This document shows positions 2,474-38,688 of a stretch of DNA of 64,000 nucleotides, piece by piece. Origin of the DNA: Phenylobacterium sp. GTDB taxonomy: Bacteria; Pseudomonadota; Alphaproteobacteria; Caulobacterales; Caulobacteraceae. Both the position numbers and the translations under genes were made by a program. The notes under the pieces were generated by a model. That model was not told the DNA's origin. It was given only the letters and a program-made list of their open reading frames with translations, and did not search any database. The stretch covers positions 102,900-166,899 of the forward strand of contig NZ_JBKBSM010000001.1 in the NCBI RefSeq assembly GCF_046291545.1, written 5' to 3'. Position 1 is the stretch's first letter. Each line of letters starts with the position of its first letter.

Positions 2474-3230
2474 GGCGAAGGGCATGCGGCTGACAGGCAG
2501 GACGGCGATCGTGACGGGCGGAGCCTCGGGCTTCGGCGAAGGCATCGTGCGCAGGTTCGTCGAGGAGGGCGCGCGGGTGGCGATCGTCGACCTCAACGTT
2601 TCGGCGGCGCAGGCGCTGGCGGGCGAACTGGGCGACGCCGCCATCGCGGTGGGCGCGGACGTGTCCAAGGACGCGGACGTGGCGCGGCTGGCCGCCGAGG
2701 CGGTGCAGAAGCTGGGGCCGGTGGAGATCCTGGTGAACAACGCCGGCGTCGGGCACACGCCGCAGCCGCTGGAGACCCTGTCGGACGCCGACTTCGACCG
2801 GATCTGGGCGGTCAACGTGAAGTCGGTCTACCTGACGGCGCGGCACATCGTGCCGGCGATGAAGGCGGCCAGGCGCGGAGCGATCCTGAACGTCGCCTCG
2901 ACCGGCGGGGTCAGTCCGCGGCCAAACCTGACCTGGTACAACGCCTCCAAGGGCTGGATGATCACCGCCACCCGGGCGATGGCGGTGGAGCTGGCCCCCT
3001 TCGGCGTGCGGGTGAACGCGATCAATCCGGTCGCCGGGGAGACCCCGCTCCTCAAGACCTTCATGGGCGAGGACACCCCCGAGGTGCGGGCCAGGTTCCT
3101 GGCGTCGATCCCGCTGGGGCGGTTCTCGACGCCGGCGGACATGGGCGCGGCCGCGGCGTTCCTGTGCTCGGACGACGCTTCGATGGTGACGGGCGTGGCG
3201 ATGGAGGTCGACGGTGGCCGCTGCATCTGA
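2466..3230 (+). CDS. Short-chain dehydrogenase/reductase (FabG-like)
   Basis: [17 protein letters not shown]; overlaps the ALDH stop. Confidence 0.93.
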
Positions 3231-4326
3231 GCCCTTCCGCCTGCTGGTCCTGCCCGGGGACGGCATCGGCCCGGAGGTGATCGGTCAGACCCTGCGGGTC
3301 GTCGACTGGTTCGGCCGATTCCTCGGGCGGCCCTTTGCGATCAGCCAGGACCTGGTCGGCGGGGCCTGCCTCGACACGCACGGCGTTCCGGTGACGGACG
3401 CGGTGGTGGAGACCGCGCTCAGCGCCGATGCGGTGCTGTTCGGGGCGGTCGGCGGGGAGAAGTGGGACAGTCAGCCCATCCACCTGCGCCCGGAGGCCGG
3501 GCTGCTGCGGCTGCGCAAGGACCTGGACCTCTTCGCCAACCTGCGCCCGGCGATCTGCTATCCGGAGTTGGCCAGCGCCTCGGCGCTGCGGCCGGAACTG
3601 GTCGAGGGGCTCGATATATTGATCATCCGCGAGCTGACCGCCGGGGTCTACTTCGGCGAGCCGCGGGGCGTGGAGACCCTGGCGAACGGCGTGCGCCGGG
3701 CCTTCGACACCCAGGCCTACACCTCCGAGGAGGTGGAGCGGGTGGTGCGGGCGGGGTTCGACATCGCCCGCGGCCGCAACAGGCGCGTGTGCTCGGTGGA
3801 CAAGGCCAACGTGATGCAGACGGGCGCCTTCTGGCGCGAGATCGCCACCGCCGTCGGCCGCGACTATCCCGACGTGGAGCTGACCCACATGTACGCGGAC
3901 AACTGCGCCATGCAGCTGATGCGCCGGCCCAAGCAGTTCGACGTGGTGGTGACCGACAACCTGTTCGGCGACATCCTCTCGGACGCGGCGGCCATGCTGA
4001 CCGGATCGCTCGGCCTCCTGCCCTCGGCCTCGCTGGGAGCGGCGGGCCCGGACGGCGTCCGCAAGGCGCTCTACGAACCGGTGCACGGCTCGGCGCCGGA
4101 CATCGCCGGGCGGGGGCTGGCCAATCCGCTGGCGACGATCCTGTCGTTCGGCATGTGCCTGCGCCACTCGATGCGCGCGCCCGAGGCGGCCGATCGCCTT
4201 GAAGCCGCCGTGCGCCGCGTCCTGGCCCGGGGCGTTCGCACCGCCGACATCGCCCGTCCCGGCGAGGCGGGGGTGTCGACGACGCAGATGACCGACGCCG
4301 TGCTGGCGGAGTTGGATGCGATGTAG
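3214..4326 (+). CDS. leuB: 3-isopropylmalate dehydrogenase (beta-decarboxylating dehydrogenase)
   Basis: [53 protein letters not shown]. Confidence 0.85.
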
Positions 4327-4327
4327 C

Positions 4328-4345
4328 TGCTCAATCGGTTGAGCA
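4328..4345. promoter_or_regulatory. Perfect palindrome TGCTCAATCGGTTGAGCA, candidate XRE-cupin operator (site 1)
   Basis: 7-4-7 perfect inverted repeat upstream of the hydrolase-aminotransferase-ABC operon; related copies at 18185 and 18798. Confidence 0.7.
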
Positions 4346-4418
4346 CTAAACCCGGTTGGGCGCCGCGGGACGCGGGACTAGACTTGCGCGCTTGGGGACG
4401 CATTCGGCGGAGGGGGCC

Positions 4419-5423
4419 GTGCTGGCGAAGATCGGAATGGGGGTCTTGATCTTCATCGCGGCGCTCGCCGCCCTGGCGGGGCTGGCTTTCGCTGGGCTCT
4501 ACCGGCCAGACATCCCCTATGAGAAGCTTGAGGCCAAGTACGCCCGGCCGACCTCCCATTTCGCCGACCTGCCCGGCGGGGTGCGCATGCACTACCGCGA
4601 CGACGGTCCGCGCGACGCGCCGGTGGTCATGCTGGTGCACGGCTACGGGGACAGCTTCCTGACCTGGGAGCCCTTCATCGAGCGGCTGTCGCCGAATTTC
4701 CGGGTGATCACCATCGACCTGGCGGGCCACGGCCTGACCCGGGCGCCGGCGGGCTATGCGCCGGACATGGACCGCTTCGCCGAGCAGGTGGACGCCCTGG
4801 CTGCCAAGCTCGACCTGCCTCCCTTCGCCATCGTCGGCAACTCCATGGGGGGAGGCGTGGCCTGGCAGACGGCGGTCAGGTTCCCCGAGCGGGTGAAGGC
4901 GCTGGTGCTGGTGGACGCGGCCGGCTGGCCGGCGGACCCGAACAAGCCGGTCCCGGCCGCCTTCAAGATCCTGCAGAGCGACCTAGGCCGCTTCCTGCTG
5001 CAGCGGATCGAGACCCGGCCGCTGACGGCCCAGGGGCTGAAGATGGACGTGGTCGACGATTCCCTGATCACCCCGGCCTTCGTCGACCGCTGGGTCGAGG
5101 TGCAGCGCGCGCCTGGCCACCGGGCCATCCTGATGGGCGTGCGCCCGGGGCGGCACACCGTCGCCAGCGAAGCGGCGCTGGGCCAGATCAAGGCGCCCAC
5201 CCTGGTGCTGCATGGCGAGCAGGACGTGATCATCGATCCCGCGGACGGCCGCAAGTTCGCCGCCGCCATCCCCGGCGCGGCGCTGATCACCTATCCCAAC
5301 GCCGGCCACCTGCCGCAGTATGAAATCCCCGATCGCTCGGCCGCCGACGTGACGGCCTTCCTCCTGGCGCTGCAGGCCCCGCCCGCCGCGCCCGCCCCGC
5401 AACCCGCCAGGGACCCGGCATGA
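4419..5423 (+). CDS. Membrane-anchored alpha/beta-fold hydrolase
   Basis: N-terminal hydrophobic helix, HGYG, GNSMGG nucleophile elbow, GEQD acid, GH base; GTG 4419 after GGAGGGG (ATG 4437 is an alternative). Confidence 0.88.
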   Translation: MLAKIGMGVLIFIAALAALAGLAFAGLYRPDIPYEKLEAKYARPTSHFADLPGGVRMHYRDDGPRDAPVVMLVHGYGDSFLTWEPFIERLSPNFRVITIDLAGHGLTRAPAGYAPDMDRFAEQVDALAAKLDLPPFAIVGNSMGGGVAWQTAVRFPERVKALVLVDAAGWPADPNKPVPAAFKILQSDLGRFLLQRIETRPLTAQGLKMDVVDDSLITPAFVDRWVEVQRAPGHRAILMGVRPGRHTVASEAALGQIKAPTLVLHGEQDVIIDPADGRKFAAAIPGAALITYPNAGHLPQYEIPDRSAADVTAFLLALQAPPAAPAPQPARDPA

Positions 5424-6748
5424 CCACCCACTTCAAGCCCGCCGCCAATTCGCTGGACGCCTATTGGATGCCGTTCACGCCGAACCGGCGGTTCAAGGCC
5501 GATCCCCGGTTCGTCGAACGCGCCGAGGGCATGCACTACTTCACCCCCGACGGGCGGCGGATCCTGGACGCCACCTCGGGCCTTTGGTGCGTGAACGCCG
5601 GCCACAACCGCCCGCGGATCGTCGAGGCGATCCAGAAGCAGGCGGCCGAGATGGGCTACGCCACCACCTTCAACATGGGCCACCCCAAGGCCTTCGAGTT
5701 CGCCAACCGCCTGGCGGCCCTGGCGCCCGGCGACCTGAACCACGTGTTCTTCACCAACTCCGGCTCCGAGGCGGTCGACACGGCGCTGAAGATCGCCGTC
5801 GCCTACCAGCGCAGCCGCGGCAAGGGGACCAAGACCCGGCTGATCGGCCGCGAGCGCGGCTATCACGGCGTCGGCTTCGGCGGCATCTCGGTGGGCGGCA
5901 TCGTCAAGAACCGCATGTACTTCGGCTCGCTGCTGACCGGGGTGGACCATCTGCCGCACACCCACGACCTGGCGCGCAACGCCTTCTCCCGCGGGCAGCC
6001 CGAGCACGGCGCCGAGCTGGCCGACGAGCTGGAGCGGATCGTCACCCTGCACGACGCCTCCAACATCGCCGCGGTGATCGTCGAGCCGGTGGCCGGCTCG
6101 ACCGGGGTCCTGGTCCCGCCCAAGGGCTATCTGCAGCGCCTGCGGGCGATCTGCGACAAGCACGACATCCTCCTCATCTTCGACGAGGTGATCACCGGCT
6201 TCGGGCGGCTGGGCGCCTCGTTCGCGGCCGAGTACTTCGGCGTGCAGCCGGACATGATCACCATGGCCAAGGGCATCACCAACGCGGCGGTGCCGATGGG
6301 CGCGGTGGCCGTGCGGCCGCACATCTACGAGACCATGCTCGACAACGCCGACGCGCCGATCGAGCTGTTCCACGGCTACACCTATTCGGGCCACCCCTTG
6401 GCCTGCGCGGCCGGGCTGGCGACCCTGGACACCTATCGCGATGAAGACCTGTTCGGCCGCGCCGCGCGCCTGGCGCCGATGTGGGAGGAGGCCCTGCACG
6501 GCCTGGCCGACGCCCGCCACGTGATCGACATCCGCAACCTCGGCCTGATCGGCGGAATCGAGCTGGCGCCGCGTCCCGGCGCGCCGGGGGAACGGGCGAT
6601 GGAGGCGTTCCGCGCCAGCTTCGACCGGGGCCTGCTGGTGCGCGTGACCGGCGACATCATCGCCCTGTCGCCCTCGCTGATCATCGAGGAAGCCCAGATC
6701 GGCGAGATCATGGACACCCTGCGCCAGACCCTGGCCGAGATCGCGTGA
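5420..6748 (+). CDS. Class III omega-amino acid:pyruvate aminotransferase
   Basis: YWMPFT, SGLWCVNAGH, SGSEA, GYHG, FDEVITGFGRLG, AKGITN (PLP Lys), HGYTYSGHP. Confidence 0.93.
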   Translation: MTTHFKPAANSLDAYWMPFTPNRRFKADPRFVERAEGMHYFTPDGRRILDATSGLWCVNAGHNRPRIVEAIQKQAAEMGYATTFNMGHPKAFEFANRLAALAPGDLNHVFFTNSGSEAVDTALKIAVAYQRSRGKGTKTRLIGRERGYHGVGFGGISVGGIVKNRMYFGSLLTGVDHLPHTHDLARNAFSRGQPEHGAELADELERIVTLHDASNIAAVIVEPVAGSTGVLVPPKGYLQRLRAICDKHDILLIFDEVITGFGRLGASFAAEYFGVQPDMITMAKGITNAAVPMGAVAVRPHIYETMLDNADAPIELFHGYTYSGHPLACAAGLATLDTYRDEDLFGRAARLAPMWEEALHGLADARHVIDIRNLGLIGGIELAPRPGAPGERAMEAFRASFDRGLLVRVTGDIIALSPSLIIEEAQIGEIMDTLRQTLAEIA

Positions 6749-25259: not shown

Positions 25260-25357
25260 CCGAGATTCCCGCCGCAACGGCGTCGATTGCGAATTGCCAG
25301 GACTCGCGCGCGCCGCGAAGGTGCAACCATAGGGGATTGTCCGCAAACGGGGTCGGA

Positions 25358-25972
25358 GTGAACGCGCGCGTAAGGCAGCGGGAGGCGACGCAGGCCAGCA
25401 TTCTCAAGGCGGCGCTGCAGGAGTTCTCGAGCAAGGGGTTCGACGGCGCCTCGACCCGTGAGATCGCCGCCGGGGCCGGCGTGCATCACGCGCTGATCAA
25501 GTACCACTTCAAGAGCAAGGAACTGCTCTGGCGGGCCGTGGTGGCGGAGCTGTTCGACCAGGAGATGGAGGCGCTGGAGCTGCCCTCGCCTGACGATGCG
25601 GCCTTCGCCGATCCCCGGACCTATGGCCGCGAGACGATCCGTCGTCGCGCCCGCTACTGGGCGCGGAACCCCGAGCACGCGCGTCTGATGGTGCAGGAAG
25701 CCTTTCGCGACGGCGACCGGCTGGCCTGGATGATCGAGGAGCACCGCGCCCGGTTCGGCGACGCCGATGAGGCGTTCGTGCGCTTCCTGCAGACACACGG
25801 CCTGGTTCCCGTCAACGCGCCTCTGGCGAGCCTGGTCTATATCATCCTGGGCGCGACTCAGTTCTTCTTCGCCGCGGGGCCGCAGGCCAAGCGGATGTGG
25901 GGCGTCGATCCCGCCGACCGGGAGGTGATCGACCGCCACGTGGAGTCCCTGGCGCAGATGCTGATCCCCTGA
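25358..25972 (+). CDS. TetR family regulator
   Basis: AALQEFSSKGFDGASTREIA..AGV..ALIKYHFKSKELLW; GTG 25358 after GGAG. Confidence 0.88.
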   Translation: MNARVRQREATQASILKAALQEFSSKGFDGASTREIAAGAGVHHALIKYHFKSKELLWRAVVAELFDQEMEALELPSPDDAAFADPRTYGRETIRRRARYWARNPEHARLMVQEAFRDGDRLAWMIEEHRARFGDADEAFVRFLQTHGLVPVNAPLASLVYIILGATQFFFAAGPQAKRMWGVDPADREVIDRHVESLAQMLIP

Positions 25973-25976
25973 CGGG

Positions 25977-26429
25977 TCAGTGGATCGTCGGGGCGGCCGG
26001 GGTGTCGTCGAACAGGCGGACCGGCAGGCTGAGGCCCTCGACGGCGAGCACCGTGTTCAGCGCACGGGCCAGGCAGACCACCGAATCGGCGTCGCGGACG
26101 AGAGGCTCCAGCAGCCGGGCGGCGATGTCCGGCGCGACGGCGCAGACGCCGCAAGCCAGGACCAGGCGCTGCTCGTCGTCGGCGTAGCCGGGGCAGGCGC
26201 CGAGATGGACCTGGAGCGGGCGCCGGCCGCCGCTTTCGACCGCCTGCATCAGGGCCGCGAACAGGGCGCCGACCCGGTCGGAGGACACGCAGGCGATGGC
26301 CTCGCGAACGCTGCGGTCGGGCGCGCGGCGGCTGCAGCGGCTGCGCGCCCAGGCCCTGAGGCCGGCCAGAAGCAGGCGTTCGCCGTCCCACAGTCCGGAC
26401 GGGCCGGGCAAATCGGAACGGGCCCTCAT
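25977..26429 (-). CDS. Hypothetical helical Cys-containing protein (paralog B)
   Basis: ORF with ATGA coupling to the upstream gene; shared ERLLL..LRAW and DEQ motifs. Confidence 0.72.
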   Translation of the reverse strand: MRARSDLPGPSGLWDGERLLLAGLRAWARSRCSRRAPDRSVREAIACVSSDRVGALFAALMQAVESGGRRPLQVHLGACPGYADDEQRLVLACGVCAVAPDIAARLLEPLVRDADSVVCLARALNTVLAVEGLSLPVRLFDDTPAAPTIH

Positions 26430-26920
26430 GCGACCGACCGCCCGGCTGCGACCGCCACTGCACGGGCCTGGGCGGGGCGCGAGCCGACTTCGGCCTGGCG
26501 CAACCGCCGGCCGCTCATGGCCAGGGCCTGGGCGACCACGCCGGCGGCCGCCTGGAACGGGGGCTCTGGCGGGCGGGCGATCAGCCAGGCCAGGCGTGCG
26601 TCGAATCCTGCCTGGTCCCCGGCCTGGGCGTCGGCGAACAGGGCGGCGATCTGCTGTTCGTCTCGGGTCAGGGCCAGCCGGCCGGGCACGCTGACCGCGA
26701 TGCGACGACGGCCGCGCAGGACCAGTTGCTGGGCGAAGACGAGGAAGGCGCGGCGCGCCTCCACCGCCAGGGCGCCGCAGGCGGTTTCGAACTCGCGGAC
26801 CACCACGGGACAGTCGATCCGCCCGGCGACAAAGGCGCGCATGGCCCAGATCACCAGGTGCTCGCCATAGGTGAGTTCGCGCAGATCGCCGGGGGCGGCG
26901 GGATCGGGACGGACGTTCAT
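26426..26920 (-). CDS. Hypothetical helical protein (paralog A)
   Basis: EHLVIWAMRAF...LTRDEQQ; lies directly behind a Fur-type palindrome. Confidence 0.75.
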   Translation of the reverse strand: MNVRPDPAAPGDLRELTYGEHLVIWAMRAFVAGRIDCPVVVREFETACGALAVEARRAFLVFAQQLVLRGRRRIAVSVPGRLALTRDEQQIAALFADAQAGDQAGFDARLAWLIARPPEPPFQAAAGVVAQALAMSGRRLRQAEVGSRPAQARAVAVAAGRSVA

Positions 26921-26932
26921 AGTCTGGCCTTA

Positions 26933-26951
26933 TTTGCGAATGACTCGCAAA
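26933..26951. promoter_or_regulatory. 19-bp palindrome TTTGCGA-ATGAC-TCGCAAA, Caulobacter-type Fur box
   Basis: Perfect 7-5-7 inverted repeat 12 bp upstream of ATG 26920; matches the recalled TGCGA-N5-TCGCA Fur motif of Caulobacterales. Confidence 0.7.
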
Positions 26952-27109
26952 AGCATCCTCCTGCCCTGGGCTCTCGTCAATCTCAAAGACGCGGTCGCAT
27001 GGCGCCGAACGCCCGTTCCCTCGCCCGAAGATTTCCGCTTCGCGTCTGGACGCAGGGCCGTCCCCCTGGGCTAGGGTGGGTTTTCCGCCGCTCCATGGAG
27101 CCCCCCGCC

Positions 27110-37839: not shown

Positions 37840-38688
37840 ATGCGGGTAGTCACGATTGCAAGTCTGGGGGCTTCGGCCCTGCTGGGCCTGGCGGCCCTGG
37901 TCGTCGCCAAGGCGGTGCTGCCGAACAAGACCGCGGCCGCCGCCTCGGCGGCGAGCGCGGCCGTCCAGGCGCCGCCCCGCGGCGAGCCGGTGGTGGTGGC
38001 GGCCAAGGCCATCCCCTATGGCGAACGGCTCGAAGCCAGCCACCTGAAGCTCGTCCACTATCCGCAAAGCGCCGTGCCCGAAGGGGCGTTCGGCTCGATC
38101 GAGGCGGTGCTCTCGCAGGACAACGGCGGCCCGCCCGTGGCCATCACGCCGATGGCCGAGCGCGAGCCCCTGCTGCCGGCCAAGCTGAGCGGCCCCGGCG
38201 CGCGCGCCTCGGTGGCCGCCGAGATCGCCGAGGGCATGCGGGCCTACACCATCCGCGTCACCGACGTCTCCGGCGTGGGCGGCCACGCCCTGCCCGGGGA
38301 TCACGTCGACGTGGTGCTGACCCGCGACCTGTCCACCGACGACGTGCAGAAGCAGCTGGTGAGCCAGGTGGTGATCCAGAACATCCGGGTCCTAGGCGTG
38401 GACCTGAACGCGGACCCGACGTCGAACAAGCCGACCATGCCCAACACCGCGACCCTGGAGGTCACCATGGCTGACGCCCAGAAGCTGGCCGTCGCCGGGG
38501 ACATGGGCACCCTTTCACTGGCGCTTCGGCCCACCGGCTCCACCGAAGTGGCGCAGGTCCGCACCCTGCAGAGCCGCGAAGTCATCGCGGGCGCGCCGGC
38601 GCGCAGCGCTCGATCGCCGGCCTCCGCCGCGGCCCCCGCGCCGCGGGCCTCTCGTCTGATCACCGTGGTGGAGGGCGAAGGCCAATGA
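37840..38688 (+). CDS. cpaB: Flp pilus assembly protein CpaB/RcpC
   Basis: SAF domain (VVVAAKAIPYG), GMRAYTIRV..VSGVGG..LPGDHVDV. Confidence 0.9.
   Translation: MRVVTIASLGASALLGLAALVVAKAVLPNKTAAAASAASAAVQAPPRGEPVVVAAKAIPYGERLEASHLKLVHYPQSAVPEGAFGSIEAVLSQDNGGPPVAITPMAEREPLLPAKLSGPGARASVAAEIAEGMRAYTIRVTDVSGVGGHALPGDHVDVVLTRDLSTDDVQKQLVSQVVIQNIRVLGVDLNADPTSNKPTMPNTATLEVTMADAQKLAVAGDMGTLSLALRPTGSTEVAQVRTLQSREVIAGAPARSARSPASAAAPAPRASRLITVVEGEGQ

Follow-up and report, generated by a model that had tools for sequence, protein, structure and literature searches.

We analysed a 64,000-nucleotide stretch of a Phenylobacterium sp. genome (contig NZ_JBKBSM010000001.1, positions 102,900 to 166,899; hereafter the window), with a G+C content of 71%, and focused on two small consecutive genes, which we call A and B, and on the palindrome TTTGCGAATGACTCGCAAA upstream of them. 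An earlier note, made from the letters of this DNA, had described the locus as two translationally coupled paralogs behind a perfect Fur-type box, and had proposed that they encode an undescribed heterodimer induced by iron limitation. As it had claimed, a 19-bp palindrome precedes gene A, at a distance of 12 bp (26921-26932) from the ATG (26920, minus), and a GANTC site lies in its centre. The features of the locus are collected in Table 1.

Table 1. Features of the A-B locus in the window, with the basis on which each was assigned.
Feature	Position	Strand	Description and basis
Gene B	25977-26429	minus	open reading frame (ORF), 150 residues; CC_2367/CCNA_02452 ortholog by sequence similarity; conserved H75, C79, C93 and His150 (last residue)
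ATGA stop/start overlap of A and B	26426-26429	minus	sequence
Gene A	26426-26920	minus	ORF, 164 residues; diverged A-type paralog by profile comparison; conserved H21, C37 and C48
Probable ribosome-binding site AAGG	26928-26931	minus	7 nt before the gene A ATG; read from the sequence
Fur box (Fur-alpha type) TTTGCGAATGACTCGCAAA	26933-26951	.	matrix score and conservation upstream of the family
GANTC (GACTC), CcrM-type methylation site	26942-26946	.	inside the Fur box, starts at its central base
Candidate -10 hexamer GATGCT	26952-26957	minus	17 bp after the -35, abuts the Fur box; from the upstream alignment
Candidate -35 hexamer TTGACG	26975-26980	minus	matches the Caulobacter sigma-70 -35; kept in relatives

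We built a Fur weight matrix from 27 published Caulobacter crescentus Fur sites, which themselves score from 15.9 to 30.2 bits. With this matrix, TTTGCGAATGACTCGCAAA scored 27.6 bits, in the upper part of the training range, and the second best match in the window, both strands considered, reached 14.9 bits. The palindrome pattern, allowing up to two mismatches, occurred once in the window, against 0.08 occurrences expected from shuffles. C. crescentus Fur sites have a conserved TGCGA within a 19-bp 9-1-9 palindrome (da Silva Neto et al. 2009, PMC2724300, Table 3), and the published site most similar to the window box is TTTGCGATTGACTCGCAAT, located upstream of CC_2367, a gene annotated as 'hypothetical protein'. 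TTTGCGAATGACTCGCAAA is a perfect 7-5-7 inverted repeat with arms TTTGCGA and TCGCAAA, and it shows one mismatch when read in the 9-1-9 form used for Fur boxes, so that the word 'perfect' was slightly generous. According to these results, the assignment to the Fur type stands, and by its sequence the palindrome is a box of the Caulobacter (Fur-alpha) kind. The second best match, ATGGCGAACGGCTCGAAGC (38018-38036), falls inside long coding ORFs on both strands and is probably due to chance.

Regarding the proteins, B could be linked to a gene already listed in the Fur regulon. The protein P0258 of C. vibrioides DSM 9893 clusters with AAK24338.1 / ACL95917.1 / Q9A5T0, and in a C. vibrioides chromosome its gene is preceded by the two published CC_2367 Fur sites, identical in sequence and placed at exactly -95 and -129; hence, P0258 is CC_2367/CCNA_02452. 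B shows 46% identity to P0258 over 143 residues (E-value 2e-38), and on this similarity we conclude that B is the ortholog of C. crescentus CC_2367/CCNA_02452. A reaches only 26% identity to P0258 (E-value 1e-4), which makes it a paralog and not a member of the CC_2367 group. In microarrays, CC_2367 was induced 23.6-fold by dipyridyl, that is, under iron limitation, and 26.7-fold in a fur mutant (PMC3751524, Table 1); it appears again among the Fur-repressed genes in PMC10715135, and its Fur site is one of the predicted sites in PMC2724300, a study in which 11 sites were tested by gel shift. Orthology of B to this gene thus supports the proposed induction by iron limitation. It also means that iron and Fur control of the family is known and not new, since it had already been shown for CC_2367, and calling the genes undescribed was too strong: the B family has been listed in the Caulobacter Fur regulon since 2009/2013, as a hypothetical protein. 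In the literature searched, the locus tags CC_2367 and CCNA_02452 were found only in tables of four relevant papers, and the function was never studied. CC_2367 (UniProt Q9A5T0) resembles B in having the same kind of Fur box with an internal GACTC, in being Fur-repressed and in lacking a Pfam domain. Unlike the window locus, it consists of one gene without an A-type partner, is preceded by two Fur boxes (-129 and -95) and a long leader and lies in another neighbourhood.

The box accompanies the gene family well beyond these two species. A genome scan with the B sequence alone gave no match; with the B-family alignment, it recovered 60 loci, belonging to Caulobacter, Phenylobacterium and unclassified Caulobacteraceae. 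The conservation of the upstream motif, which the earlier note had suggested as a check, was confirmed: in 59 of the 61 B-family loci, the DNA immediately before B (or before A, in loci that have it) contains one or two boxes scoring 14 bits or more, mostly 20-31, and the remaining two loci are contigs cut at the gene. Elsewhere in the ~390 kb of flanking DNA we found only about five comparable matches, three of them in locus L047, near fur and a gene for an extracytoplasmic function (ECF) sigma factor. Typical Caulobacter loci combine two boxes, separated by 34-38 bp, with a leader of ~100 nt; in the window and its relatives, a single box lies near the start. Environmental metagenomes (hot springs, subsurface, sludge) were the only source of identical or near-identical copies of the locus, and the nearest named genomes are Phenylobacterium metagenome-assembled genomes (MAGs).

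An exhaustive hidden Markov model (HMM) search with a combined A+B profile, another check suggested earlier, uncovered a large family, with 1573 representatives at E-values up to 1e-3 and 307 at E-values up to 1e-10, each representative standing for a cluster at 50% identity; a third homolog search with a broad alignment gave mostly the same proteins again. A Fur box was present upstream in all seven distant members whose DNA we inspected, with scores of 25.6 bits in L066, 26.2 bits in the Asticcacaulis locus L068, 26.5 bits in L069 (upstream of a TonB-receptor-A-B cluster), 26.0 and 22.6 bits in L070, 20.4 bits in L071, 28.7 bits in L076 and 17.8 bits in L077. Taking together the box, its conservation and the orthology of B, we consider it very likely that the A-B operon is under the control of Fur or iron. 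In L076, the annotated start of the family protein P0146 falls inside its own Fur box (3000-3018), so its N-terminal 'MRIVRNI...' is probably translated operator, and the real start is probably a Met located ~16 codons downstream.

Regarding known families, Pfam and NCBIfam searches with A and B gave no match beyond noise; DUF5073 (E-value 0.05), a ribosomal protein and an acyl-CoA synthetase (E-values ~0.1) were discarded as matches of that level. We also scanned 118 family representatives against Pfam, and six of them showed sub-threshold, collinear matches to DUF6628 (PF20333), with a best value of 5e-5. One of these, P0148, reached 21.4 bits over profile positions 55-127 of 137, below the gathering score of 27 bits. 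A, B (both searched to an E-value of 1) and their close relatives gave no match to DUF6628 and do not belong to it. Because all matches are sub-threshold, the family is at most a distant relative of DUF6628, which is itself uncharacterised; none of the papers searched mentions it.

A is very basic (isoelectric point 11.05) and B near neutral (7.6), and A contains two Cys residues and B six, in agreement with the earlier remark that B carries several. The maximum 19-residue hydropathy of 1.4-1.9 suggested no signal peptide or membrane segment in either. Close homologs of A numbered only ten, all from Phenylobacterium-like sources, and those of B 92, among them named Caulobacter proteins. The ten A homologs share 52 invariant columns, which indicates that A is a maintained gene. 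A direct BLASTP comparison of A against B was not significant (E-value 0.085). The profile alignment, set beforehand as the test of paralogy, supported it: hhalign of the two family alignments reported a probability of 92% and an E-value of 5e-7 over 119 collinear columns. Moreover, the A-HMM matched B-family ORFs at 5e-8 to 1e-3, and the B-HMM matched A-family ORFs at 4e-8 to 3e-4. We conclude from these profile matches that A and B are distant paralogs. Among the shared motifs described earlier, GE[HR]L..., RR.[IL].V and DEQ are real, while the first pattern had been written one residue short, as three residues, not two, separate L-[LV] from [LM]-R-A-[WF]. The family hallmarks GERLLL..R.WA, RRP[IL], DEQRL, ARALN, LP.R and the C-terminal T-x-H are all found in B; A has altered versions of the first three and no terminal His.

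The ATGA overlap of the two genes, also noticed earlier, is conserved in relatives. An ATGA or GTGA overlap was found in all four genome loci with both genes (the window, L002, L003 and L047), and also in L062 and in L073-L075, and this conserved stop/start overlap on the same strand marks the pair as a putative translationally coupled bicistronic operon. In the distant locus L069, separate A-type and B-type genes follow each other, in that order, after a TonB-dependent receptor. In addition, we inspected 12 family matches of 296-376 residues, and ten of them were tandem fusions of an A-type N-terminal domain and a B-type C-terminal domain ending in ..LH, the invariant C-terminus of the family. 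As for the other two, P0146 has the reverse domain order, and P0209 matches in only one stretch. The fused proteins (for instance P0152, P0165 and P0233) are similar to the window pair in their A-type domain followed by a B-type domain ending in ..LH, in the same helical domain and in the Fur boxes upstream (L066, L070). They differ from it in being one polypeptide, with a linker of ~20-30 residues, and are only ~20-27% identical to the window proteins. Their A-type half is usually devoid of Cys, and the B-type half carries the Cys of ECG plus a CxxC. Since the A-then-B order recurs as coupled genes, as spaced genes and as fusions, which is the usual signature of proteins that work together, A and B would be expected to do so. 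The natural fusions make a heteromer of A and B plausible, and we regard the formation of such a complex as fairly probable.

We modelled the natural fusion P0152, using an alignment that excluded single-domain sequences, as the A-type ones had aligned to the wrong domain. The model has a mean predicted local distance difference test (pLDDT) value of 86.7, with 242 of the 323 residues above 90, and five to six helices per domain. Foldseek searches of the Protein Data Bank (PDB) found no significant match, either with this model (best E-value 0.94, template modelling (TM) score up to 0.2) or with that of B (best E-value 1.3, TM score up to 0.28), and a profile search of PDB sequences gave none below an E-value of 0.46.

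Across the broad family, the recurrent Cys and His columns form two groups. The N-terminal one consists of the His of GEH and of one Cys each in DCP and ACG; the C-terminal one comprises a His or Cys preceding P-G-C, the PGC/CxxC Cys, a further Cys in ..ACG.. and a His in the last position of the chain. Some of the single-gene proteins have both groups. In the window, A has the first (H21 and C48 invariant, C37 nearly so) without the second, and B has the second (H75, C79, C93 and H150) without the first; T148 and H150 of B do not vary among 24 B-family sequences. Such a division of the two groups between A and B is in keeping with subfunctionalised partners. For the binding or sensing of metal or heme suggested earlier, the evidence consists of these conserved Cys and His positions. 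Our best guess is that these residues are ligands for iron, for an Fe-S cluster or for another metal, and we propose binding of a metal or an Fe-S cluster by A and B only tentatively.

Upstream of the genes, an alignment with related loci allowed us to place a candidate promoter. The hexamer TTGACG stands at an equal distance from the box in L002, L003 and L027, and the Caulobacter sigma-70 -35 element is quoted as TTGAC (PMC2724300). At the position of the candidate -10, the relatives read AATGTT, TACCGC or TATCGA. With this placement, the box would lie over the likely transcription start, the classical position of a repressor.

Putting these observations together, we favour, with moderate confidence, a reading in which A and B form a Fur-repressed, iron-starvation-induced two-gene operon that makes a cytoplasmic, metal-binding A-B heteromer. 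When iron is sufficient, Fe2+-loaded Fur would sit on the 19-bp box and block RNA polymerase, because the box directly follows the probable -10 and overlies the probable transcription start. Under iron scarcity, Fur would leave and one A-B messenger would be made, and the ATGA overlap would couple the translation of both genes and give roughly equal amounts of A and B. The two proteins would be diverged copies of one all-helical domain of ~150 residues and would most likely pair as a pseudo-symmetric heteromer, in the same arrangement as the fused A-B polypeptides. The sets H75, C79, C93 and His150 of B and H21, C37 and C48 of A could then bind iron, an Fe-S cluster or another metal, and the complex would act in the cytoplasm during iron starvation by handling or sensing iron, or by adjusting its use.

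Several observations weigh against this proposal. The P0152 model has a predicted TM score of 0.52, so the packing of its two domains is not established, and the model of B alone has a pLDDT of 65.7, with low confidence at residues 69-98 (the Cys loop) and at the C-terminus. The Cys and His positions vary between subfamilies and are not invariant, in window B the CxxC common in most B-type proteins is missing its first Cys, and no known metal-binding family or fold was matched in the Pfam, NCBIfam, PDB profile and Foldseek searches. The ratios of non-synonymous to synonymous substitutions (dN/dS) in comparisons with L002, L003 and L047 were 0.39-0.72 for A and 0.41-0.59 for B, and values of ~0.4-0.7 indicate only moderate constraint. 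B is found without A in most genomes and hence does not depend on it, and A could have a separate role. As to transcription, a generic E. coli-type promoter scan of the region found no promoter; the candidate promoter is placed by the upstream alignment. Four public RNA-labelled runs hold short contigs of the locus at 2-4x depth, one of them spanning the A/B junction (26311-26513) and another extending from A through the box to upstream of the putative promoter, and all of them could come from DNA carry-over. We infer the position of the promoter, the repression in Phenylobacterium, the formation of the heteromer, the binding of a cofactor and the cellular role.

One could argue that B alone is functional, as a homodimer of the CC_2367 type, presumably the form at work in Caulobacter too, and that A is a drifting or repurposed lineage-specific duplicate, for instance a basic, nucleic-acid-binding or chaperone-like partner for other targets, with no obligate heterodimer. 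An A-type gene stands beside B in only four of the 61 genome loci (the window, L002, L003 and L047; a few metagenome contigs also have it, and elsewhere B is single), A lacks the C79, C93 and terminal His of B, the two proteins differ in charge as described above, and the dN/dS of A rises to 0.72. This view is harder to reconcile with the 52 columns, H21 and C48 included, that are invariant in the ten A homologs, with the conserved 4-bp overlap and with the recurrence of the A-then-B order in the distant L069 and in the ten natural fusions. We consider it unlikely.

The neighbouring genes bear on two further explanations. In the window, A and B are surrounded by genes for a phosphoenolpyruvate carboxylase, two TetR regulators, an FAD/ALO oxidase, a cytochrome c, a hybrid kinase and a P450. 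We found no TonB-dependent receptor or siderophore gene within ~4 kb of A/B, so that the absence of such genes next to the pair, reported earlier, holds over that distance. The carboxylase gene (ppc, from ~27095) is divergent from A, and the shared intergenic region of ~175-190 bp contains the Fur box. The convergent TetR gene (~25340-25972) ends 4 bp from the end of B, with no terminator-like hairpin in between, so the two transcripts may overlap at their 3' ends. The syntenic locus L062 also has a divergent ppc, two TetR genes and the FAD/ALO oxidase, cytochrome c and hybrid kinase genes, together with a chloride channel gene, and none of the genes around these two loci is iron-related. Other family loci have different surroundings. 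In the Caulobacter-like L064 (5288-6480) and L065, a B-type gene and an ECF sigma-FecR-TonB-dependent receptor cluster face away from each other, and the shared 173-bp intergenic region holds two Fur boxes of 24.9 and 21.8 bits. In L068, the family gene and a TonB-dependent receptor gene are divergent, and the L069 pair adjoins DUF4198 and EF-hand genes. In L047 (2477-5828), which is a MAG contig with the label Alsobacter soli, the pair and fur (3578-3988, minus; Pfam FUR 4e-38) are arranged tail-to-tail. A 27.5-bit Fur box at 4220 stands between fur and a very weak third family-like ORF (4294-4950), and upstream of an ECF sigma gene (5223-5828) there is a 19-bit box at 5140; the whole region looks like a small iron-regulatory island. 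The neighbourhood thus differs between family loci, and only the Fur box is constant.

The proximity to ECF sigma-FecR-TonB receptor clusters in L064 and L065, and to fur and another ECF sigma gene in L047, would suit a second explanation, in which A and B act as regulators instead of metal handlers: for instance, they could modulate Fur, an ECF sigma factor of iron starvation or enzymes that use iron, at the protein level, and work as an iron-sparing switch that senses through the Cys/His site. The very high expression of the C. crescentus member in low iron (PMC3751524) and the small size of these proteins, predicted to be helical and cytoplasmic, would also be in line with it. These neighbourhoods are not conserved, though, as C. 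crescentus, the window and L062 have unrelated neighbours, and the Pfam and NCBIfam scans detected no DNA-binding or anti-sigma domain, so we find this explanation rather improbable. Finally, the palindrome is most improbably anything other than a Fur site, be it the operator of a neighbouring TetR or an element serving ppc: two TetR genes flank the region, the box lies ~145-160 bp upstream of ppc in the shared intergenic region and Caulobacter Fur activates some central-metabolism genes from upstream sites (PMC2724300), but the box matches validated Fur sites and accompanies the A/B family in dozens of genomes with no adjacent TetR or ppc. The reading as a TetR operator was rejected, as the box follows the gene family and not the TetR genes. 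Fur may have a secondary effect on ppc.

The GANTC in the box deserves separate mention. Boxes containing a GANTC are kept in 42 of 58 family loci, as compared to 3 of the 27 published Fur sites, which rules out that the motif is a built-in part of the Fur consensus. In C. crescentus, the stretch between CC_2367 and the gene upstream of it holds a single GANTC, namely the GACTC of Fur box 1. A GANTC assigned to CCNA_02452 is among the 50 sites of the genome with the highest REC-Seq scores, that is, the least methylated ones (PMC5172544, Table 1). Its score was 2365 in the wild type and 124 in the mucR1/2 mutant, it was not flagged as a MucR target, and that study draws no connection between the site and Fur (PMC5172544). 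We infer that Fur shields this GANTC from methylation. The question of GANTC methylation versus Fur, raised in the earlier note, is thus a real and testable one. The conserved GANTC is hypomethylated in C. crescentus, and the site offers a ready test case for the interplay of Fur occupancy and CcrM methylation.

The A-B pair can be compared with other small, Fur-repressed cytoplasmic proteins that are strongly derepressed in low iron, such as Bfd, the bacterioferritin-associated ferredoxin (CC_3263), which holds a Cys-ligated [2Fe-2S] cluster, and FbpA/B/C of B. subtilis, which are small and basic and take part in iron sparing. A and B share no sequence or fold similarity with them, and the analogy is functional only. 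In a bolder view, which we hold to be a long way from probable, the paired, single and fused forms (~1,500 clusters) would all be a Cys/His-ligated dimer with a new fold, acting as an Fe-S or iron sensor-effector specific to iron starvation in Fur-using alphaproteobacteria. This dimer would be made only once Fur lets go and would re-allocate or release iron at the protein level, and its expression would be linked to the cell cycle through the CcrM site kept in the Fur box.

Few members of the Caulobacter Fur regulon are derepressed as strongly as the CC_2367 family, which has remained a 'hypothetical protein' for more than 15 years. Our analysis adds an A-type paralog coupled to B, natural fusions of the two types, the family's size, its near-universal Fur boxes and its lack of Pfam membership or of a detectable fold relative in the PDB, the split Cys/His pattern of A and B and the conserved GANTC in the box. 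The family exists as single genes, as coupled A-B pairs and as A-B fusions, with Fur boxes upstream across a deep divergence. It is not surprising in kind, and it constitutes a well-defined target for the study of bacterial iron homeostasis, with a testable picture of a dimeric, possibly metal-binding module that may be a missing piece of alphaproteobacterial iron homeostasis.

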